A DNA stretch of 11,916 nucleotides from a virus. Lineage: Duplodnaviria > Heunggongvirae > Uroviricota > Caudoviricetes. Of this stretch, positions 913 through 11,916 are shown piece by piece. The notes under the pieces were generated by a model. It was not told the DNA's origin and did not search any database. It was given only the letters and a program-made list of their open reading frames with translations. Both the position numbers and the translations under genes were made by a program. How positions within the stretch are numbered: the first letter of the stretch is position 1; each line of letters begins with the position of its first letter. Location: IMG/VR virus record IMGVR_UViG_2547132488_000014, positions 1-11,916 of that record; one strand, 5' to 3'.

Positions 913-1704
913 TTATGCTTCGATCGCCGTTTTGAGCCGTTGTGTTGCTACATCAAAATAATGATCACTGGTTTCTATACCAATAAATTTGCGTCCTGCT
1001 TTCAGCGCTGCAACACCCGTTGTTCCCGATCCCATAAAAGGATCAAGGACTGTTCCACCACTATTCGCAGTCCTGACCAGTTCTGCCATAAGTTCTTCTG
1101 GTTTTCCGGTCGGGTGCATTTTCTTTGATGGGATAACCGGGAACGTCATGCAGCCGTCGAACGGTCCCGAAGGCGATTTATCTAAATGGCCTTTACTGCC
1201 CCAGACGATGTATTCGCACTGATGCCGGAAATACCCCGTATGGGGTGTTCGTGACCCCCTTCCTTTGTTCCACGCAATGATGCCGCGCCATGTAAAGCCA
1301 CTGGCCTGAAACGCATCGGTTAAAGCTGGTAATTGTCGCCAGTCAGTAAATACCAGGGCATAACCGCCCGGCCTGACTGCGCGGTGTGCCTGTGCCATCC
1401 ATAATTGTGTCCAGTAAGCCCACGAACGGGCGTCCATGTTTTCACCCGCGAACCCATCAAAACGGTGAAGGCTCTCGCCGTTCAGATATTTTGCATGGCT
1501 GCCCTGGTTGGTGCGTCCGGCCTTGTGTGTCGCACCCGAACTGTAAGGCGGGTCAGTGATTAAGGCATCAATGCTTTCTGGCTCAATCAGCGGCAATATT
1601 TCCAGCGCATTCCCACGACAGAGCGTGGCATTGTCAGTCTGATAAACCTTAGTGTGTTCCGGTGTATGTGCTGGTTGGTGCTGGATTGCGATCCCCACGG
1701 TCAT
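913..1704 (-). CDS. DNA amino-methyltransferase, beta-class (N6-adenine or N4-cytosine), orphan: no cognate restriction gene in the window
   Basis: 263-aa ORF with motif IV DPPY (ITDPPYSS) N-terminal to motif I FxGxG (DPFMGSGTT), the circularly permuted order typical of beta-class N6A/N4C methyltransferases. ATG at 1702-1704. Confidence 0.88.
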   Translation of the reverse strand: MTVGIAIQHQPAHTPEHTKVYQTDNATLCRGNALEILPLIEPESIDALITDPPYSSGATHKAGRTNQGSHAKYLNGESLHRFDGFAGENMDARSWAYWTQLWMAQAHRAVRPGGYALVFTDWRQLPALTDAFQASGFTWRGIIAWNKGRGSRTPHTGYFRHQCEYIVWGSKGHLDKSPSGPFDGCMTFPVIPSKKMHPTGKPEELMAELVRTANSGGTVLDPFMGSGTTGVAALKAGRKFIGIETSDHYFDVATQRLKTAIEA

Positions 1705-1846
1705 AACTCCTCATGTGTGTGGGGTGCTCGATGGCTCTCGTTATCTGGTTAAGTGTTTTGCAGCGCGGACATTTTATTTCAATGTAGTGAAATGAGGCGC
1801 GGGCAAGTAGTTTGTTGCAATTTTTGCATCGTACATTTTGCGTCAT
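1649..1846 (-). CDS. com: Com-like zinc-finger protein (phage Mu Com family translational activator), overlapping the methyltransferase start
   Basis: Translation MTQNVRCKNCNKLLARASFHYIEIKCPRCKTLNQI... has a CxxC-N16-CxxC zinc ribbon closely resembling Mu Com as recalled (RCKNCNKLL...HIEI.CPRCK). ATG at 1844-1846 with AGAGG Shine-Dalgarno 8 nt upstream; an in-frame GTG at 1853-1855 is the alternative start. Stop at 1649-1651 is 55 nt inside the methyltransferase ORF, in a different frame. Confidence 0.7.
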   Translation of the reverse strand: MTQNVRCKNCNKLLARASFHYIEIKCPRCKTLNQITRAIEHPTHMRSYDRGDRNPAPTSTYTGTH

Positions 1847-1893
1847 TTGCGGCACCTCTTGTGTGGTTACTGCTGCCGATATGATAACAAATC

Positions 1894-2035: not shown

Positions 2036-2332
2036 TTAGCCATATTTGCGGGCAAAGTCTTCATCAGAGGTGCATAGATAGATAAAAAACTCAATAAATG
2101 CCACGATTGCCGGAATGAATGTCCAGCAAAAAATAAGGTAAAGGAATCCTTGCCCCACTTTACCTAAATAAAATTTGTGTGCACCAAGACCACCTAAAAA
2201 GAAAGCCAGTAGTGCGGCTGTCATTCTGCTTTTTGAACTTGCTGTTCTTTGAGGTGCTCCACAATTGGGGCAGGATGTGGCATCTTTATGTATTTCCTTG
2301 CCGCATCCGCGACAAAATACCATTTCACTCAT
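2036..2332 (-). CDS. Small membrane protein with N-terminal zinc ribbon and TM2 domain
   Basis: 98-aa ORF: CRGCGKEIHKDATSCPNCGAP (two CxxC) followed by two hydrophobic helices and a GGLGAHKFYLG motif typical of TM2-domain proteins. AAAGGAAC Shine-Dalgarno upstream of ATG at 2330-2332. Confidence 0.8.
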   Translation of the reverse strand: MSEMVFCRGCGKEIHKDATSCPNCGAPQRTASSKSRMTAALLAFFLGGLGAHKFYLGKVGQGFLYLIFCWTFIPAIVAFIEFFIYLCTSDEDFARKYG

Positions 2333-3102: not shown

Positions 3103-4212
3103 TCACTCTGTTTCCGCTATCCATTCCGGGATTTTTGCCTCAAGCTCAAGCTGCGTGGTAAAGCCGCTGTTATCAATGGTGTGCTCGGCTTTTGCAATAA
3201 TCCAGTCCTGATTATCAATCTCGCTTTTAAATCCTGTTACCGTGCCATGCATTTCGGGGTAGAGTTCTGCACGTCCACGCGCCAGCGTGATGGAGAATGA
3301 TGCGGCTCCGCGTTGTAGCTGCTGCCACTTTGCCGCCGCTGCGCGTCTTGCTGCCTGCTCGTTCTGATAAGTCTTGCGTAACACAAACACATTGCCTTCC
3401 GCGCCTTCCATATAATCACCTTCACGGCTGCTGCTTTTCTCCTTTTTGGGCTTGGGCGGTTTGCGGCGTTTCACGCTGACTTTTTTCTTTTTCCCGTAAT
3501 TAAGATCAAGCCAGTAAGCGCGTACCCCCGTATACGCTTCGCGGTCAGCAATGCGGAACTGATGGCGATCGCCGCTGCTGCGTGTGATGGCAAACGATGG
3601 CAACGGCTGGCCCTGTGCGTTCACGCCGCCGCCGGGCATGATGAATAACAGATTACCGCTTTTTACCGTGGTGATTGCGCCCAGCATTTCCGCCATGCGC
3701 GTAAGGAAGGACATGTCGCTTTCTTCGGTCTGGTCGGCGTGGTCGATTTCGATATCCATCAGCATTTCGCTGATTTGCGGTTTCAGACCATACCGATGAG
3801 CGATGGCGGATACCACACGCTCAACGGTCACATCATGCCAGGACACCTCACGTTTAACGTTAAATTCATCCCGAAAATCTGCGCTTCTGGCTGAAACAGT
3901 CAGCCTGTCCGGCGGTCCTTCGTGAGCGATTTCATCAACAATGTAAGTGCCTTTTTCTGTCAGCGGTTCTCCCTTCCAGCCAATGAGAACCGTCAGGCGC
4001 GCGCCCCGTGGCGGTAGCTGCAACTGACCATCCGCATCATCCAGCATGATGGTGAGCTGGTCCGCCTCAAATCCCCGGTTGTCGGTCAGTGACAGGCTCA
4101 TCAGGCGCTCTGCCACGCCTGACAGCGTTTTACCCTCCGCGAGAATATCAAAATCCGGCATTTTCACGGGGTCTGTGCCCTGACTGAGCAATTGCATGGT
4201 GGTGTCGGTCAT
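3103..4212 (-). CDS. D: Tail protein gpD (P2 late control gene D family)
   Basis: Large ORF directly upstream of ogr on the same strand, about the size of P2 gpD. Start set at the internal ATG (4210-4212; MTDTTMQLL...), preceded by GGGAGGGAG. The ORF-track start at 4344 adds 44 residues with no ribosome-binding site. Confidence 0.85.
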   Translation of the reverse strand: MTDTTMQLLSQGTDPVKMPDFDILAEGKTLSGVAERLMSLSLTDNRGFEADQLTIMLDDADGQLQLPPRGARLTVLIGWKGEPLTEKGTYIVDEIAHEGPPDRLTVSARSADFRDEFNVKREVSWHDVTVERVVSAIAHRYGLKPQISEMLMDIEIDHADQTEESDMSFLTRMAEMLGAITTVKSGNLLFIMPGGGVNAQGQPLPSFAITRSSGDRHQFRIADREAYTGVRAYWLDLNYGKKKKVSVKRRKPPKPKKEKSSSREGDYMEGAEGNVFVLRKTYQNEQAARRAAAAKWQQLQRGAASFSITLARGRAELYPEMHGTVTGFKSEIDNQDWIIAKAEHTIDNSGFTTQLELEAKIPEWIAETE

Positions 4213-4369
4213 CTGCTCCCTCCCTGTGTGGCATGGTCGCATGTGCGTGCGGAGGGGGTTACTGCTTTTTGTTGTCGCCGTGGCGGGAGAATGGCGCAGG
4301 GGTGAGATTGCGCGCGTGGTGGGTGATGATTGTTGCCGAATCATTTAACGGATACAAGGGGCTGAAGCT

Positions 4370-5554
4370 ATGAGTGAAACTCGTTTTCATGGTGCCCGTG
4401 TTACGGAAAATACCGACCTGGTAACAGCGATTAACGATGTTGATTCCAGCGTTATCGGTATCGTGGCAACGGCGGATGATGCGGACGCGAAGCTGTTCCC
4501 GCTGAACAAGCCCACACTGCTGACCCGCGTCAATGACGTGCTGGGAAAATGCGGGACAACGGGGACGCTTTATCGTGCGCTTAAGGCCATCGCAGACCAG
4601 GTGAGCACAAAGGTGATCGTCGTTCGCGTGGCTGAACACAAAGAAGAAGACGGAAAAACGCAGGATCAACTGGTTATCGGTGGTTCTGAATCTGACGGCA
4701 GCTATACGGGGATGTATGCGCTGCTTGTTGCAGAGCAGGATGAAAGCATCGGATACCGTCCGCGTATTCTGGCCGCGCCGGAGCTGGACACGGAGGCGGT
4801 GACAAAATCCCTGTGCGTGATTGCGGGTAAACTGCGCGCGTTTGTGTATGCCTCATGTCACGGCTGTAACACGATGGCTGAGGCAATTACCTACCGCCAG
4901 AAATTCAACGAACGAGAGGTGATGCTCTTATGGCCGGACTTCATCGCCTACAACCCGAAAAGTGGCAAAAACGAAACGTTCCCCGCGCCTGCCTATGCGT
5001 GCGGCCTTCGTGCGTACATTGACCATGAACAGGGCTGGCACAAATCGCTGTCCAACGTTCCGGTTAAAAATGTGCTGGGGATGTCCGGGCATGTGTTCTG
5101 GTCGTTGCAGGCCGAAGACAGTGATGCCAACAGCCTCAACAACAAAGAAATCACGACCATTATTCGTCGCAACGGGTTCCGCTTCTGGGGCAACCGCACA
5201 CCGGAAACGAACGCCTACATCTTTGAGGTGTATACCCGAACCGCACAGGTGCTGGCTGATTCAATTGCGGAAGCGCAGTTTGAAACCATCGACAGTCCGC
5301 TGACGCCTGCGAACGTGAAGGATGTTATCAGCGCCATCAGGGCAAAACTGGATTCACTGGTGACTGCCGGGAAACTGATTGGGGCGTCGTGCTGGTATGA
5401 CGTGGTGGATAACGGCACCACGAATTTACGTCAGGGGCGCGTGCGTATTCGCTACAAATATACGCCAGTTCCCCCGCTGGAAGACATGGAGCTTTACCAG
5501 TCGTTTACTGATGAATTCTTTGGTCCCGCATTTGCGGTGCTGGGAGGTGCCTGA
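4370..5554 (+). CDS. FI: Contractile tail sheath protein (gpFI)
   Basis: 394 aa, first gene of a sheath-tube-chaperone-tape measure-gpU series; size and position as in the P2 FETUD operon. AAGGGG Shine-Dalgarno 9 nt upstream of the ATG. Confidence 0.88.
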   Translation: MSETRFHGARVTENTDLVTAINDVDSSVIGIVATADDADAKLFPLNKPTLLTRVNDVLGKCGTTGTLYRALKAIADQVSTKVIVVRVAEHKEEDGKTQDQLVIGGSESDGSYTGMYALLVAEQDESIGYRPRILAAPELDTEAVTKSLCVIAGKLRAFVYASCHGCNTMAEAITYRQKFNEREVMLLWPDFIAYNPKSGKNETFPAPAYACGLRAYIDHEQGWHKSLSNVPVKNVLGMSGHVFWSLQAEDSDANSLNNKEITTIIRRNGFRFWGNRTPETNAYIFEVYTRTAQVLADSIAEAQFETIDSPLTPANVKDVISAIRAKLDSLVTAGKLIGASCWYDVVDNGTTNLRQGRVRIRYKYTPVPPLEDMELYQSFTDEFFGPAFAVLGGA

Positions 5555-6066
5555 TGGCTGTACCAAAACATCTTCGCTTTTTTACGCTGTTTGTGGATGG
5601 TGAAAACGAAGTGGGTAAGGTGACGTCCGTCACCCTGCCTAAACTGACGCGCAAAACCGACAGCTACCGGGGTGGCGGCATGATGGGAGCGGTAAGTATT
5701 GATCTCGGCCTGGATGACTCCGCGCTTGATGCGAGCTTTGTCATGGGGGGCGCAGTTCGTGAGCTGTTCCTTAAGTATGGCGGCACGATTGACGGCACGC
5801 TGCTGCGTTTTGCGGGTGAATACTACACCGATGCAGAAAGCGACCTGTATGAAGTCGAAATGCGCGGACGTGTGACGGAAATTGATATGGGGGAAGCCAA
5901 ACAGGGCGAAGCCACATCACACACTTACGCCATTAAAAACACCTACTACAAGCTGAGTGTTAACGATCGCCCGTTGTGGGAGATTGACCTGCTGAACTTC
6001 ATCTACCGGAAGGACGGCAAGGACATTGTGCCTGACCGTATCCGTTCCGCGCTTGGGCTTGGCTGA
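5554..6066 (+). CDS. FII: Tail tube protein (gpFII)
   Basis: 170 aa directly after the sheath gene; its ATG overlaps the sheath stop (TGATG), indicating translational coupling; GGGAGGTG upstream. Confidence 0.85.
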   Translation: MAVPKHLRFFTLFVDGENEVGKVTSVTLPKLTRKTDSYRGGGMMGAVSIDLGLDDSALDASFVMGGAVRELFLKYGGTIDGTLLRFAGEYYTDAESDLYEVEMRGRVTEIDMGEAKQGEATSHTYAIKNTYYKLSVNDRPLWEIDLLNFIYRKDGKDIVPDRIRSALGLG

Positions 6067-6120
6067 TAAGTAATATGCAGGCGGCGCAGTGCGTCGCCTC
6101 TGACTGAAAGGAGTTTCCTG

Positions 6121-6486
6121 ATGAAAGAGACGAAAAACATCGATACCGAAAACACGGTAGTTACTGACACTGTGAAAGAAACCAGTGAGCGTGGCGTAAA
6201 ACTTACCCAACCCATTGAGCGAGGCGACGAAAAAATCACGTATGTGGAGATCACCGGGGCTATTGAGCAGGCTGGATCTCTGCGAGATTTGTCGCTGTCT
6301 GATGTGCTGAATCTGAAAGCGGAATCCATGTTTACGCTGCTGTCACGCGTGACATCACCGCGACTGGATGAAGTGACGATCAAAAAAATGGCATCCCGTG
6401 ACTTTATTCAGTTATGTGTGGTTGCCGTAAATTTTTTGAGCGGTGCGGACTCTGGCGGGAAGAACGAACAGGCGACGGAAGCCTGA
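6121..6486 (+). CDS. E: Tail assembly chaperone gpE (zero-frame product)
   Basis: 121-aa ORF between tube and tape measure genes; contains the slippery heptamer near its 3' end. Confidence 0.82.
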   Translation: MKETKNIDTENTVVTDTVKETSERGVKLTQPIERGDEKITYVEITGAIEQAGSLRDLSLSDVLNLKAESMFTLLSRVTSPRLDEVTIKKMASRDFIQLCVVAVNFLSGADSGGKNEQATEA

Positions 6487-6650
6487 TCACGGTTGTGTGC
6501 TTTGAGCACATAGAAGACTTTGTGGCAGATATTGCCGTTATTTTTAACTGGTCGCCCGCCGAAATCTTCATGATGACGCCCGGCGAAGTGGTTAGCTGGC
6601 GTGAGCGGGCGGCACTTCGCAGCGGGAGGGCAGACAATGAAGACTCTTGA
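6121..6650 (+). CDS. E': Tail assembly chaperone E+E', product of a programmed -1 ribosomal frameshift near 6432-6438
   Basis: The -1 frame ORF 6414-6650 overlaps the 3' end of E and ends at TGA 6648-6650, overlapping the tape measure start. The heptamer T TTT TTG sits in X XXY YYZ register in the E frame. Same architecture as P2 E/E'. Confidence 0.75.
6432..6438 (+). other. Slippery heptamer TTTTTTG (programmed -1 frameshift site for E/E')
   Basis: E-frame codons AAT TTT TTG place the heptamer in X XXY YYZ register; the -1 frame is open from this point to 6650. Confidence 0.75.
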
Positions 6651-9444
6651 TATCCGGGTCGCTTTCAGCGCCGTTGACAGGCTGACCCGGCCTGCCGAAA
6701 ACGCCCGCCGCCTGATGGGGCAGTTTGGTGACTCCATCCAGCGAACGCAGGGGGCGATCAAAAATCTCGAGCGTCAGGCGCGTTCATTTGAGCGCGCCCG
6801 CGACGCTGTCAGTAAAGCGGATGCGGGCATCGTGAAAGCACGACGCCAGCTTAACGCCCTTAATCAGTTACAACGCACGGGTACAGTGCTCAGCGAAAAA
6901 CAACAAAAGCTGATGCAGCAGTTAAGCACCCGGCTTGAACGCCTGAATGAATCGCGCACACGGGAAATTCAGAAAATGCGGGAACTTGGCGGAGAGCTGA
7001 AACGCCACGGCATTTCCCTGACAGGCAGCGATAACACCATCCAGCAGGCCATCAGACGCACCGAACAGTACAACAACCAGCTTGAACGCGAACGGCAGGC
7101 GCTTGCGCGTGTAACGCGGGCGCGTGAGCGGTATTCGCGCGCGCAGGAAACCGCGGGAAAACTGAAAACAGGTGGTGCGCTGGCAATTGGTGCGGCAGCG
7201 GCTGGCGGCTATGCTACCGGGCGTTTTTTGCAGCCTGCGATCGGGTTCGGGAAAGAGATGTCCCGCGTTCAGGCACTGACGCGAATCGACCAGAACAGCC
7301 CGCAGTTTAAGGCGCTGCGTGAGCAGGCGTTAAAACTTGGCTCTGAAACGCAGTTCACCGCAGGCGATGCCGCCAGTGGACAGGCATTTCTTGCAATGGC
7401 TGGCTTCACTCCACAGGCCATTCAGGCTGCGCTTCCCGGCGTGCTGAGCATGGCAACGGCTGGCGGTATGGATCTCGGCGAGACGGCAGATATTGGCTCA
7501 AATATCCTGACGCAGTTCGGCCTTTCTGCTGACCAGATGGACCGGGTCGGTGACACACTCACCGCAGCGTTTACCCGTACCAACACTGACCTTCGCGCAC
7601 TGGGCGAAACCATGAAATATGCAGGTCCGGTGGCGGGTAAGCTGGGAATATCGCTGGAGCAGGCCGCAGCGATGGCTGGCGTGCTGGCGAATATGGGCAT
7701 CAGAGGGAGTGATGCCGGGACGGCAATGCGTGCCAGCCTGGCTCGTCTGGCATCACCGCCAAAGGCGGCGGCAGAGGCGCTGAAAGAGCTTGGTGTGGCA
7801 GTTTCTGACGCGAACGGCAAAATGCGCCCGATGGAGGATGTGCTGGCCGACCTTTATAAAGCCACCCGCAAATACGGGGAAGTTGACCGGGTATCCTTCT
7901 TTAAGGACATCGCCGGGGAAGAGGCTTTCACATCGTTTATGGCGCTCGTTGATGCGGCAGGTGACGGTTCCTTACCCAAACTGAGAAAAGAACTTGAAGG
8001 CGCACGCGGTGAGGCTGAACGCACGGCAAAGGTTATGGCCAACAACCTTGATGGCGATCTGAAATCACTCGGCAGTGCATGGGAAGGGTTGCGCATCCGC
8101 ATTGCAGATCTGATTGACGGCCCGCTGCGTTCTGTCACGCAGTGGCTCACGCGGGTGGTATCAAGGGTGACGGCGCTGGCGCAGGCCCATCCGGCACTGA
8201 CGCGCCAGTTACTGATAGCAGGCGGTGCGTTGCTGGCAATGACTGCAACGATTGGCTCGTTGTCGCTGGTTATTGGCGTGCTTCACGGGAAACTGGCCAC
8301 GTTACGTCTTGGTTTTTCTCTCCTGACCGGATCAATGAATGTCGTCAGGGTGCTGCCAGCACTATGGGGAATGGTAACAGGTTCCATCTCGTTGCTGGGT
8401 GGCGCTATCGGGGCGCTGTTCAGTCCGGTCGGATTGATTGTTGCCGCGTTTGTGGCTGCGGCGGTTCTCATCTGGAAATACTGGGAACCCATCAAGGCGT
8501 TTTATGCCGGGGTGTTCAGTGGGATTATGGAACGGCTGGCTCCGTTGCGCGAAACCTTTGAACGGTTTGGTCCTGTTTTTGATGTCGTGCGCGATGGGAT
8601 TATTCAGCTCTTTAACTGGTTTAAATCGCTGCTGTCACCGATGGAGTCCAGCAAGGAAACGCTGGATAAATGTACCAGTGCTGGCGAGATATTCGGTAAC
8701 GTTCTTGGTGGCGCGCTACAGCTTGTTCTGACGCCTGCAAAAATGCTGCTGGATACGCTGGCGTGGATACTTGAAAAACTCGGTGTGCTTCCGGATGAAG
8801 CGGAAAGGGCGAGAAAGAAAATCGAAGACGCACAGCGTGCGGCCATTCTTCAGGACAAGGTTGCCTTGCTTCAGGGGGACCTGGCGAAAATCAATCCGCC
8901 GAAGCCTGTGGAAAATGGCAATGGCACCGGAGGTGATAAACCCAAAGACAATAAACCGCTCACAGACAGCAACACCGGAACGCTACGCAGGCTCAGCAAA
9001 ATTGCTGATAACACAGGTAAGCTGGTTGATGAGACGAAAAAACGCATTGGCCCCGGCGATATTGTCTTTAAGAACCTGCCCCGCGCACTTGCTGTTCGTG
9101 GGGAGTGGCAGGAGCGGAAGATTGCGCAGGTCAGTAAGCCTGCCCCCGCAATTAATATCCCCCCCGTGGTCCCGGCTCCGCTGCCTCCGGCGCTGGTCCC
9201 TGTTGTTGCGGCCAGCTCCCGCCCGGTGGCGGAGGCCATACGATCGCCAGTGGCATCAGTTCCTGTAACTTCCCGTAACCGGGAGCCTGTTGCCTCCGGA
9301 TTTGGTGGTGAAATTCATGTTCATCTGCATAACGTTGTTACGCAGAATCCCCGCGAACTGGCGAAACTGGTCGGTGAAATGGTCAGGGCAGAAATGGAAC
9401 GGCGCGCCCGTGCCGGGCGTGGCAGTTTTTACGATAAAGATTGA
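6637..9444 (+). CDS. T: Tail tape measure protein (gpT)
   Basis: Largest ORF in the window. N-terminal coiled-coil-like region, central Gly/Ala-rich hydrophobic segments, Pro/Ala-rich C-terminal region. Start set at ATG 6637 (MKTLDIRV...), preceded by GGGAGGG, rather than the GTG at 6601. Confidence 0.9.
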   Translation: MKTLDIRVAFSAVDRLTRPAENARRLMGQFGDSIQRTQGAIKNLERQARSFERARDAVSKADAGIVKARRQLNALNQLQRTGTVLSEKQQKLMQQLSTRLERLNESRTREIQKMRELGGELKRHGISLTGSDNTIQQAIRRTEQYNNQLERERQALARVTRARERYSRAQETAGKLKTGGALAIGAAAAGGYATGRFLQPAIGFGKEMSRVQALTRIDQNSPQFKALREQALKLGSETQFTAGDAASGQAFLAMAGFTPQAIQAALPGVLSMATAGGMDLGETADIGSNILTQFGLSADQMDRVGDTLTAAFTRTNTDLRALGETMKYAGPVAGKLGISLEQAAAMAGVLANMGIRGSDAGTAMRASLARLASPPKAAAEALKELGVAVSDANGKMRPMEDVLADLYKATRKYGEVDRVSFFKDIAGEEAFTSFMALVDAAGDGSLPKLRKELEGARGEAERTAKVMANNLDGDLKSLGSAWEGLRIRIADLIDGPLRSVTQWLTRVVSRVTALAQAHPALTRQLLIAGGALLAMTATIGSLSLVIGVLHGKLATLRLGFSLLTGSMNVVRVLPALWGMVTGSISLLGGAIGALFSPVGLIVAAFVAAAVLIWKYWEPIKAFYAGVFSGIMERLAPLRETFERFGPVFDVVRDGIIQLFNWFKSLLSPMESSKETLDKCTSAGEIFGNVLGGALQLVLTPAKMLLDTLAWILEKLGVLPDEAERARKKIEDAQRAAILQDKVALLQGDLAKINPPKPVENGNGTGGDKPKDNKPLTDSNTGTLRRLSKIADNTGKLVDETKKRIGPGDIVFKNLPRALAVRGEWQERKIAQVSKPAPAINIPPVVPAPLPPALVPVVAASSRPVAEAIRSPVASVPVTSRNREPVASGFGGEIHVHLHNVVTQNPRELAKLVGEMVRAEMERRARAGRGSFYDKD

Positions 9445-9450
9445 GGAGTC

Positions 9451-9945
9451 ATGGCCATGATGATGATCTACGGCATGTTTGTTTTTGAGCTGCGCACGTT
9501 GCCGCATCAGCAGTTACAGCAAAACAAAAGCTGGCGGCATGTGAAAAATGAACGCGTTAACCGTTCAGCAAGCTGGCAGTATATCGGGGCAGGCGATGAT
9601 CGCATCGTTCTTTCTGGTGTGCTTTATCCTGAAATTACAGGTGGCGAAGTGTCGCTTTCGTTGCTGACCACACAGGCATATACAGGACGCCCCTGGCCTC
9701 TGATTGATGGTGTCGGGCAGATTTACGGCATGTATGTCCTGACCGGAACGAATACGACCCATTCCGAGTTTGATCGCTACGGTAAGGCGAAAAAGATAGA
9801 ATTTTCACTGACCCTTGAACGCTGTGATGAGGATTTGCGGGGGCGCCTGCAATCCTCATCGTTCAGCGATATGCTGTCCGGCTTCAAAGATAAGGTGACA
9901 GCATCCATTAACAACGCGGCCAGTTCAGTTAAAGGGCTGTTCTGA
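9451..9945 (+). CDS. U: Tail protein gpU
   Basis: 164-aa ORF directly after the tape measure gene, GAGGAG upstream. Start is ambiguous among ATGs at 9451, 9457, 9460 and 9463 (MAMMMIYGMFVFELRT...). Confidence 0.78.
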   Translation: MAMMMIYGMFVFELRTLPHQQLQQNKSWRHVKNERVNRSASWQYIGAGDDRIVLSGVLYPEITGGEVSLSLLTTQAYTGRPWPLIDGVGQIYGMYVLTGTNTTHSEFDRYGKAKKIEFSLTLERCDEDLRGRLQSSSFSDMLSGFKDKVTASINNAASSVKGLF

Positions 9946-9946
9946 T

Positions 9947-10159
9947 TTGGAAGAGCAGAGGCAGCAGGCGGAAAATGAAAAGCAAAGCCTGCTACAGCTC
10001 GTCAGGGATAAAACCCAGCTATGGGACTCACAGCTACGGCTGGGCATCATTTCCGACGAGAATAAACAAAAATTAACCGAGTGGATGCTCTATGCGCAGA
10101 AGGTCGAATCCACAGACACCTCCAGCCTGCCAGTAACGTTTCCAGAACAACCAGAATGA
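9947..10159 (+). pseudogene. Truncated tail fiber assembly protein (Tfa) C-terminal fragment, no ATG start
   Basis: The 70-residue reading frame (..QQAENEKQSLLQLVRDKTQLWDSQLRLGIISDENKQKLTEWMLYAQKVESTDTSSLPVTFPEQPE) aligns with the C-terminus of the intact Tfa on the other strand (..[63 protein letters not shown]). Frame is open only from 9899, has no ATG (first candidate is TTG at 9947, 1 nt after the gpU stop), and lacks the N-terminal two thirds. Confidence 0.6.
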
Positions 10160-10162
10160 AAC

Positions 10163-10189
10163 AAGGCCCGCTATCGGGCCTTAATTTTT
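10163..10189. terminator. Bidirectional Rho-independent terminator between the convergent Tfa fragment and Tfa
   Basis: Perfect 8-bp stem AAGGCCCG / CGGGCCTT with loop CTAT, followed on the + strand by AATTTTTATT. Lies 3 nt after the + strand stop and 5 nt after the Tfa stop on the - strand. Confidence 0.7.
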
Positions 10190-10715
10190 ATTCAGGCTTT
10201 TGTGGCCATTCAGGATTTGCCGTATCCACACGGCTGACCAGAACGCTGTAGCGTTCCCATGCTTCCAGTCGTGTGCGTTCCTCGTCTGTTGCCATATTCA
10301 GCCTGACAGCGCGTTCCAGCGGCTGGATGACTGATTCAGCTTCGGAAATCAACGCGGCCTTTTGTGATTCGGCCTGTTGTTGCTGTTCGTCAGCCGTATA
10401 AATCCGCTTAATCACAGCACCATCCTTAAACATCCATTTACCTGAGTCATCAGCACGTCGGTTGGCGGTAATATCAGGAACCTCGACAACGCTAAAACCT
10501 TCAGGGTTAAGCGTGGAGGCATCTTTGGTGATGGCGACAATAATATTATTTTCGTCGTATACAATCTTTATGGTGTCGTCCTGAAAGTTATTTACTTCCT
10601 CATACCAGTTTTTACCGTCTTCTGTATATAACCAGATAACATCAAAATTCTTTGTTAGCTGACATTGCTCTTTTGTTTTTGGATTTCCTGACTTAATATT
10701 TTTTAAATGCTGCAT
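10188..10715 (-). CDS. G: Tail fiber assembly protein (Tfa; P2 gpG / Mu U family)
   Basis: 175 aa with the conserved Tfa C-terminus (...[27 protein letters not shown]). ATG 3 nt after the tail fiber stop (TAA ATT ATG), AGGTG upstream. Confidence 0.88.
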
Positions 10716-10718
10716 AAT

Positions 10719-11916
10719 TTACACCTGTGCGACGTTATACCATGTGCCATTGATGTATTTTTGTATTGGTCTGAAGATGGCTTCATCATCGCCATCTACT
10801 TCACCAATGATTCTTAATCCGGTAATTGCGTGTCCGGCTTTTTCATAACGACCACCACGCGCCATCAATTGAACAACACGCGTACCCAGGCGAACATCTT
10901 TCACATAACGGGAATCAAAGTTACCGTAATCCGAGGGGTTAACACGCCCTGTAATATTTATGGTTTTATTACTTTGAATGCTGCCGGAGACAAAGCGCAT
11001 AACATGGACGTTATTAGCATAAACGTCCAGATTACCGTCGCCATTTTGTTTAAAGCCCGTGTCATTATCACCCAAAACAATCGAGTTACCGCCAAGAGCA
11101 CTGGATGTTCCGATACCCAGTGCACCATTCAATTGACCACCAGATAATGACAACGCCCCAACATCAGCAGCAGTCGGTTTTATGTGCGAACTGTAAATTA
11201 CATATACAGTCCCATCTGTCAGGCCTGTCGGTTTATTCGCTGTATAAGTTGGTGATGTATGAATTTGTACAGTGGCATCCTTTGTATAATCCCACTGGAT
11301 ATTAACACCCGTGGCGTAATTACCTATTTCTACATAAATGTCATAGGTATCACCGGATGTATTCACCCATGCAAAATTAGTAAATCCAACCGAGGTCCGT
11401 CGCCATAATGCACCAGTAATACCCTTTGGATTTCCATTTCCGGCACGCAGAACCAGCTCAGAGATGCCTGCTTGCTGCGGGGAGCCAACGTTATACCCTG
11501 CACCACCAATCAGACTTATGTAAACCACGGAACTGGCTTGTGGCATTGTTACAGTTGCCAGTTTGAACCATCCAGCACCACCACTAAAAGACATGGTTGT
11601 TGAATTTGTTGTGCCGATATTACGCAGGAATAGTTTTTTATCGGGAATATCTGCGCCGTTCTGGTTTTTCTGTAATGCGCCAGAAGCCTGATTTACCGTT
11701 TCCTGTAAACCGAGGTATTCGATAACGGCGGCAACGGTCGATTTCGCAAGAATATCCCGCCCTACTTTTGTCAGAGTTGCCAGGCTGGCGACATCATTCC
11801 CCGTAAAATACGGAAACCTGTCTGCCGCAGTAGCAAGCCCGGCCAGCGCCGTCAGGGTGGCATCTTTCGGTTGCTTACCCGCAAGCGCGTTAGTCATGGT
11901 GGTCGCAAAATTCGGG
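10719..11916 (-). CDS. H: Tail fiber protein (P2 gpH-like), C-terminal part; 5' end lies beyond the right window edge
   Basis: Frame is open to the window edge with no stop upstream of the listed Met at 11897, so the gene is 5'-truncated by the window. Contains the tail-fiber junction motif ...LTALAGLATAADRFPYFTGNDVASLATLTKVGRDILAKSTVAAVIEYLGLQET... followed by a Gly/Ser/Thr/Asn-rich distal region. Directly upstream of Tfa. Confidence 0.85.
   Translation of the reverse strand, partial: PNFATTMTNALAGKQPKDATLTALAGLATAADRFPYFTGNDVASLATLTKVGRDILAKSTVAAVIEYLGLQETVNQASGALQKNQNGADIPDKKLFLRNIGTTNSTTMSFSGGAGWFKLATVTMPQASSVVYISLIGGAGYNVGSPQQAGISELVLRAGNGNPKGITGALWRRTSVGFTNFAWVNTSGDTYDIYVEIGNYATGVNIQWDYTKDATVQIHTSPTYTANKPTGLTDGTVYVIYSSHIKPTAADVGALSLSGGQLNGALGIGTSSALGGNSIVLGDNDTGFKQNGDGNLDVYANNVHVMRFVSGSIQSNKTINITGRVNPSDYGNFDSRYVKDVRLGTRVVQLMARGGRYEKAGHAITGLRIIGEVDGDDEAIFRPIQKYINGTWYNVAQV
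11700..11725. other. gix/cix/pix-like 26-bp sequence (candidate Gin/Pin-family DNA invertase crossover site) inside the tail fiber gene
   Basis: TTCCTGTAAACC GA GGTATTCGATAA compared with the Mu gix site as recalled (TTCCTGTAAACC GA GGTTTTGGATAA): 24 of 26 identical. Encodes the IEYLGLQE junction of the fiber protein. Confidence 0.45.

Follow-up and report, generated by a model that had tools for sequence, protein, structure and literature searches.

A bixL invertase crossover site in the tail-fibre gene of a P88-like prophage, probably stranded by a recent deletion

Background

In recombination systems of the Gin and Hin type a Fis-dependent enhancer lies within the 5' part of the invertase gene, and recombination requires supercoiled DNA that carries both the crossover sites and the enhancer in cis. 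One Din invertase can stand in for another. Invertase dimers at two sites synapse as a tetramer, are activated by Fis, and exchange strands at the core dinucleotide (PMC3575834). The sites bixL and bixR belong to the B segment and PinB invertase of Shigella (GenBank D00660; Tominaga et al. 1991, via PMC3241671). The B segment, the Mu G segment with Gin, the fibre gene H of P2, and the fibre cassettes of P88-like phages are the described systems closest to the locus reported here. The locus lies in a window of 11,916 nucleotides (the whole stretch of DNA that was analysed) comprising the tail region of a P2-type prophage with a gene order as in phage P88 and the genus Xuanwuvirus.

The comparison with the Shigella B segment is by sites alone: the window carries bixL and the partner site of its relatives is bixR, each at 26 of 26 positions and with the core GA. 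The window keeps only bixL, whereas the invertase gene, bixR and one of the two tips have been deleted. The intact relatives of the window share the layout of the Mu G segment (Sc-site-Sv-U / U'-Sv'-site-gin), and the catalytic domain of their invertase is almost the same as that of Gin. However, the site in the window differs from gix at 2 of 26 positions, the fibre belongs to a P2-type (Xuanwuvirus) prophage and not to Mu, its constant part resembles that of P2 H, and the switch in the window is deleted and apparently locked.

The window resembles P2 in having a single coding 26-mer of crossover type at the constant/variable joint, one tfa gene (G in P2) and a fixed fibre. P2 has neither a remnant of a second chaperone gene nor a partner for the repeat arm, whereas the orphan state of the window is demonstrably recent and was produced by deletion. 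The lone P2 site, TTCCTGTAAACCGAGATATTCGATAA (L016, 3009-3034), is identical to the H-side sites of 2020N21-110 (L006, 5586-5611; L007, 13780-13805). Since this site recombines in 2020N21-110, the P2 orphan is also competent by its sequence.

In Escherichia phage P88 / Xuanwuvirus P88_4B11 and Citrobacter phage phiSM, D and ogr lie on one strand and FI-FII-E-T-U on the other, followed by the invertase gene and then the cassette. The DNA identity of these P88-like phages to window positions 9400-11916 (gpU to H) is 94.8% over the 70% that aligns. Unlike the window, these phages keep the invertase and both sites, with TTCTCGTAAACCGAGGTTTTAAATAA as the partner. The system described here is a known one, with a published bixL, a switch of Gin/PinB type and a known genus; only this particular deletion is new.

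Results and Discussion

The crossover site

We identified a 26-mer, TTCCTGTAAACCGAGGTATTCGATAA, present as a single copy in the window at 11700-11725 on the plus strand. It has the architecture of Din crossover sites, a 26-bp imperfect palindrome of two 12-bp half-sites around a 2-bp core, and reads TTCCTGTAAACC-GA-GGTATTCGATAA. The curated table of Din-family sites gives bixL as TTCCTGTAAACC GA GGTATTCGATAA (PMC3241671). The match to bixL is therefore complete (26/26), and that to Mu gix is 24/26. Against the other sites in the same table (PMC3241671) the window 26-mer has two mismatches to bixR, two to gixL/gixR, five to cixR and, among the more distant sites, five to hixL, eight to pixL and nine to cixL, compared with none to bixL. 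The central dinucleotide GA (11712-11713) is common to gix, bix and the window site. The gix 26-mers in the Mu record are centred on features annotated 'G-segment boundary', which verifies the curated sites against a real record. The preliminary description called the 26-mer gix-like; alignment with the curated sites bears this out in essence and identifies the exact match as bix.

Using a half-site weight matrix built from nine curated sites, the window site scores 29.0 bits, compared with maxima in shuffled sequence that average 7.4 and reach 15.9 at the highest. Neither the window 26-mer nor Mu gix was produced in 200 dinucleotide-preserving shuffles of the window, even when up to three mismatches were allowed. 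An exact scan for the 26-mer in a species-representative genome collection (one genome per species) gave no match. By its sequence and position, we consider the 26-mer to be a true crossover site of the Din invertase family. The features of the fibre locus are as follows.

Positions 11700 to 11725, plus strand: orphan crossover site, identical to the published bixL, with the core GA at 11712-11713; the minus strand codes for IEYLGLQE of H.
Positions 11644 to 11729, no strand assigned: surviving left arm of a former inverted repeat, 86 nt, consisting of the site and 56 nt shared by both tips.
Positions 10719 to 11916, minus strand: 3' portion of the tail-fibre gene H, which runs off the end of the contig.
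Positions 10188 to 10715, minus strand: intact tfa, 175 aa, Caudo_TAP, the partner of the expressed tip.

The variable tip Hv occupies 10719-11699 and is fused in frame through the site to a P2-like constant part above about 11726. Homology to P2 gene H spans 11692-11916, and homology to Mu and to the Mu-like prophage of E. coli SE11 extends from 9949/11644 to 11728/11732. Because P2 H homology on one side and Mu-like homology on the other meet at the site, it lies exactly at the constant/variable joint of the fibre gene, where the preliminary description had placed it. The 86-nt arm matches both repeat arms of the intact relatives as well as the Mu G-segment boundary repeat (95%).

The Mu-like similarity stops at window position 11732, at most 7 nt from the outer edge of the site, and the mosaic joint therefore coincides with the site. 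At this joint, Mu-like and P2-like phages have evidently traded whole fibre cassettes. The locus is a further case in which a fibre-module mosaic joint between unrelated phages coincides with an invertase crossover site. The stretch consisting of Hv, tfa and the remnant of a second chaperone gene, tfa' (9949-11732), is 98.4-98.8% identical to the cassette of the Mu-like SE11 prophage (L008) and to that of Yersinia phage vB_YpM_39 (L004), and the Tfa protein of the window is identical to Tfa of the SE11 prophage.

The contig ends at 11916, within the sequence for the constant part of H and 191 nt from the site. A break at this place suggests that the source genome holds a further copy of the upstream H sequence, possibly as part of a second P2-like prophage, perhaps with an invertase of its own.

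The window lacks a partner site and an invertase

No second site was found in the window at six or fewer mismatches. The next best position in the weight-matrix scan scores 7.5 bits, which is within the noise of the shuffles, and we conclude that the window has no partner site. The Pfam Resolvase domain is absent from the window ORFs tested, and a tblastn search of the window with the invertase of a relative returned only noise (E >= 0.19). When the stretch that is missing relative to the intact relatives was searched against the window by blastn, its matches were confined to the repeat arm and to tfa, a paralogue (70%). The matrix, Pfam and tblastn searches, none of which gave a match above noise in the window, agree with the earlier observation that neither an invertase nor a partner site is present. 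A switch of this kind has two tips, each with a chaperone gene. Here the only intact pair is Hv with tfa; Hv' is missing, and of tfa' the last 70 codons remain. Since the partner site, the invertase and the second tip were each looked for in the window and found missing, the locus is not classed as a functional invertible switch of the G, C, P or B segment type.

Intact relatives and inversion at the site

Relatives that are 98.6-99% identical to the window carry an invertase gene, an inverted partner site, Hv' and a full tfa' between gpU and tfa. We identified this arrangement in E. coli VCSW5 (L001), EC21Z-048 (L003), phage P88_4B11 (L005) and contigs L009, L010, L013 and L015. The gene order in these relatives is H - tfa - tfa' - Hv' - bixR - invertase - gpU, which is as anticipated in the preliminary description, where the partner was expected beyond the second Tfa at the place now taken by gpU. 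The partner site in L001, L009, L010 and L015 is an exact bixR (26/26). The recombinase is 195-199 aa in length with Resolvase and HTH_7 domains, and it matches the Mu Gin structures 4m6f and 3uj3 with E of about 1e-100. The 5' region of its gene is 94% identical in nucleotide sequence to Mu gin.

Several comparisons among relatives bear on the use of the site. L010 has the cassette in the orientation of the window, and L009, L013 and L015 have the same cassette inverted, at 99% identity. The orientation among these four switches at the position equivalent to window 11729, which is 4 nt past the site. When the L001 cassette was flipped in silico at both core dinucleotides, H stayed in frame, and the computed flipped junction is contiguous in 126 complete E. 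coli genomes. The isogenic pair 2020N21-110 and its derivative 2020N21-110-15 differ by a 3.1-kb inversion with flanks that are 100% identical, and the two 38-bp overlaps at its breakpoints contain the two 26-mers. Culture experiments have shown that fibre segments of P2-like prophages flip (PMC4272514). Taken together, these genome comparisons show that the site serves as an inversion breakpoint in the relatives.

The deletion

The features that adjoin the deletion are as follows.

Positions 9451 to 9945, plus strand: tail gene gpU, which adjoins the tfa' remnant here and is followed by the invertase gene in the intact relatives.
Positions 9946 to 9951, no strand assigned: deletion junction between 9948 and 9949, with TGATTT on the left and GGAAGAGC on the right and no microhomology.
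Positions about 9949 to 10159 (ORF from 9947), plus strand: 3' remnant of tfa', the second, oppositely oriented chaperone gene, 70 codons.

Compared with the intact relatives the window is missing 1,975-1,977 bp, which hold the invertase gene, bixR, Hv' and the 5' approximately 323 nt (about 60%) of tfa'. The window is collinear with L010, with 98.6% identity up to 9948 and 99.1% from 9956 on, and positions 10761-12737 of L010 (1,977 bp) have no counterpart in it. On one side the junction falls 3 nt past the gpU stop, and on the other about 323 nt into tfa', so that the remnant covers only positions 62-131 of the 131 in Pfam Caudo_TAP. The missing stretch is 94% identical at the DNA level to Mu U'-S'-gixR and the first approximately 390 nt of gin. 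By these alignments the window arrangement is a deletion and not the ancestral state. Gain of the cassette by insertion into a window-like ancestor is implausible, because it would need a half-domain fragment of tfa' as the ancestral form.

The exact junction recurs in GCA_036016415.1 (L012), an unrelated assembly that is 99.3% identical to the window (22 substitutions in 3,093 nt) and carries a full-length H of 712 aa. Its presence in an independent assembly shows that the deletion is real and inherited and not an assembly artefact. The intact junction between gpU and the invertase gene is present in 621 of 5,426 complete E. coli genomes, and the exact junction of the window in none of the complete E. 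coli genomes. Nor was it matched in an exact scan of the species-representative collection (one genome per species) or in a scan of viral contigs. The deletion in the window is rare.

In thirteen complete genomes (including E. coli SK1144, L002, 6190-6450) gpU also adjoins a tfa' remnant, with other end points. The deletion in these genomes keeps about 50 nt of the 3' end of the invertase gene and only 87 nt of tfa'. The fibre gene in the thirteen genomes is a different mosaic with no crossover site at all. Together with the window, this makes at least two independent losses of the invertase module by deletion. An origin of the window's deletion by the action of the invertase itself was considered and ruled out, as the end points are not at bixR or at a pseudo-site and the junction has no microhomology.

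A proposed history of the locus

We are confident that the site is the bixL of a Gin/PinB-type cassette in a P88-like (Xuanwuvirus) prophage of P2 type, stranded by a recent deletion of 1,977 bp. Where the element is complete, bixL is paired by a Gin-like serine invertase with the inverted bixR about 3 kb away. Inversion then flips Hv-tfa and tfa'-Hv', and the constant part of H thereby receives one tip or the other. In the lineage of the window, the deletion was illegitimate and extended over 1,977 bp, from 3 nt past the gpU stop to the middle of tfa', taking the invertase gene, bixR, Hv' and the 5' approximately 60% of tfa'. The recombinational enhancer was presumably lost as well, since the invertase region, whose 5' part in the relatives is so similar to Mu gin, is wholly missing. 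With the invertase gene, bixR, Hv' and most of tfa' deleted the switch would be dead, and the site is expected to be silent in the window's own genome. The fibre would be locked as the constant part joined to Hv, together with its cognate tfa, in function like H-G of P2, and we infer a single fixed host range for the prophage.

The remnant of tfa' has kept 99-99.5% identity to the corresponding 3' end in intact copies of the gene, which argues that the deletion is recent. The orphan site would persist because the deletion is recent and because the site encodes the conserved IEYLGLQE. Orphan sites can also be old, given that P2 gene H has a near-identical orphan site with no cassette remnant. 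The loss of the host-range switch means that the prophage makes one fixed tail fibre. This is ordinary decay and mostly of value for annotation, in that a lone 'gix-like' sequence in the fibre gene of a P2-type phage is best annotated as a coding remnant if it comes without a partner site and an invertase. To users of such prophages or tailocins, the deletion variant offers a naturally phase-locked fibre.

Alternative explanations

A broader reading can be placed on the orphan sites, namely that they are docking points for Din invertases supplied in trans, or for site-targeted swaps of cassettes between Mu-like and P2-like phages, and that loss of the invertase half is a recurrent, selected 'phase-locking'. 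The mosaic joint within 7 nt of the site and the two or more independent module deletions allow this reading, which we nevertheless regard as rather unlikely.

It is less likely still that the orphan site in the window remains in use, with a Din invertase encoded elsewhere (in a P2-like or Mu-like prophage or in e14) acting on it and on a distant partner and causing large inversions or cassette exchange. In favour of such use, the 26-mer matches a functional site at every position, the nearly identical P2-type variant works as the H-side site in 2020N21-110, and the mosaic joint that Hv-tfa-tfa' shares with Mu-like prophages coincides with the site. However, for inversion of the Gin type a tetramer must bring two sites into synapsis with activation by Fis (PMC3575834), while in the window no partner site rises above noise and nothing matches the DNA of the invertase gene, which is the place of the enhancer. 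The mosaic joint could also have come from homologous recombination in the conserved flanks. The preliminary description had raised the possibility of a site still usable in trans. The intact site speaks for that suggestion and the lack of a partner in the window against it, and the direct cause of the orphan state is in our reading the deletion.

The preliminary description also suggested that the site is a relic of common descent within coding sequence, on the model of P2 H. In its pure form, in which the lineage never had an invertase and the 26-mer is preserved solely for coding IEYLGLQE, this explanation is highly improbable. The 26-mer is indeed coding, and P2 gene H has its counterpart of the site with one synonymous difference and neither an invertase nor a second tip. 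However, a second chaperone gene, truncated and oppositely oriented, survives in the window together with the 86-nt repeat arm, and the flanks, which are 98.6-99% identical in the relatives, enclose a full cassette there. What stands of the suggestion is that the site is coding and apparently non-functional now; its direct cause is better sought in the recent 1,977-bp deletion than in ancestry.

There is an equally slight chance that a draft assembly collapsed or mis-joined an invertible region and that the cassette is complete in the true genome: the window makes up an entire draft contig of 11,916 bp (GCA_000357685.2, APZX01000030.1) that ends within H shortly past the site, and assemblies often break at invertible regions and repeated fibre genes, but no repeat boundary coincides with the junction at 9948/9949, the independent assembly GCA_036016415.1, with its 22 substitutions, has the identical junction, and thirteen complete genomes have a second, different deletion of the same module.

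Other features of the window

On the minus strand the window encodes a DNA methyltransferase, a Com-like zinc ribbon protein, a TM2 protein, ogr and gpD, and on the plus strand FI, FII, E, T and gpU. The FI-FII-E-T-U block (3103-9945) is inverted relative to the order in P2, with gpD and ogr on the opposite strand and divergent from FI. This inverted block is common to P88-like (Xuanwuvirus) phages and is therefore a trait of the genus and not a rearrangement in the window.

The ORF for the Com-like zinc ribbon (1649-1855, minus strand) overlaps the start of an N6/N4 DNA methyltransferase gene (913-1704, minus strand). The pair recalls com-mom of Mu, with the methyltransferase in the place of Mom.

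A gene for a 46-aa Hok/Gef-like toxin, at about 2468-2608 on the minus strand, is among the gene calls of the source contig and appears in the annotation of relatives. It adjoins a gene for a TM2-domain protein with an N-terminal zinc ribbon (2036-2332, minus strand). An Rfam scan of the window gave no match, including no Sok-type RNA at the gathering threshold.

The first 501 nt of the window encode, on the minus strand and running off the contig start, the first 167 aa of an AAA-type ATPase. Its best match is to HEC-04, a candidate defence family of PADLOC (E 7.9e-69), with weaker matches of PtuA-, AriA- and GajA-like type. Based on these matches, the gene is probably anti-phage cargo at the end of the prophage.
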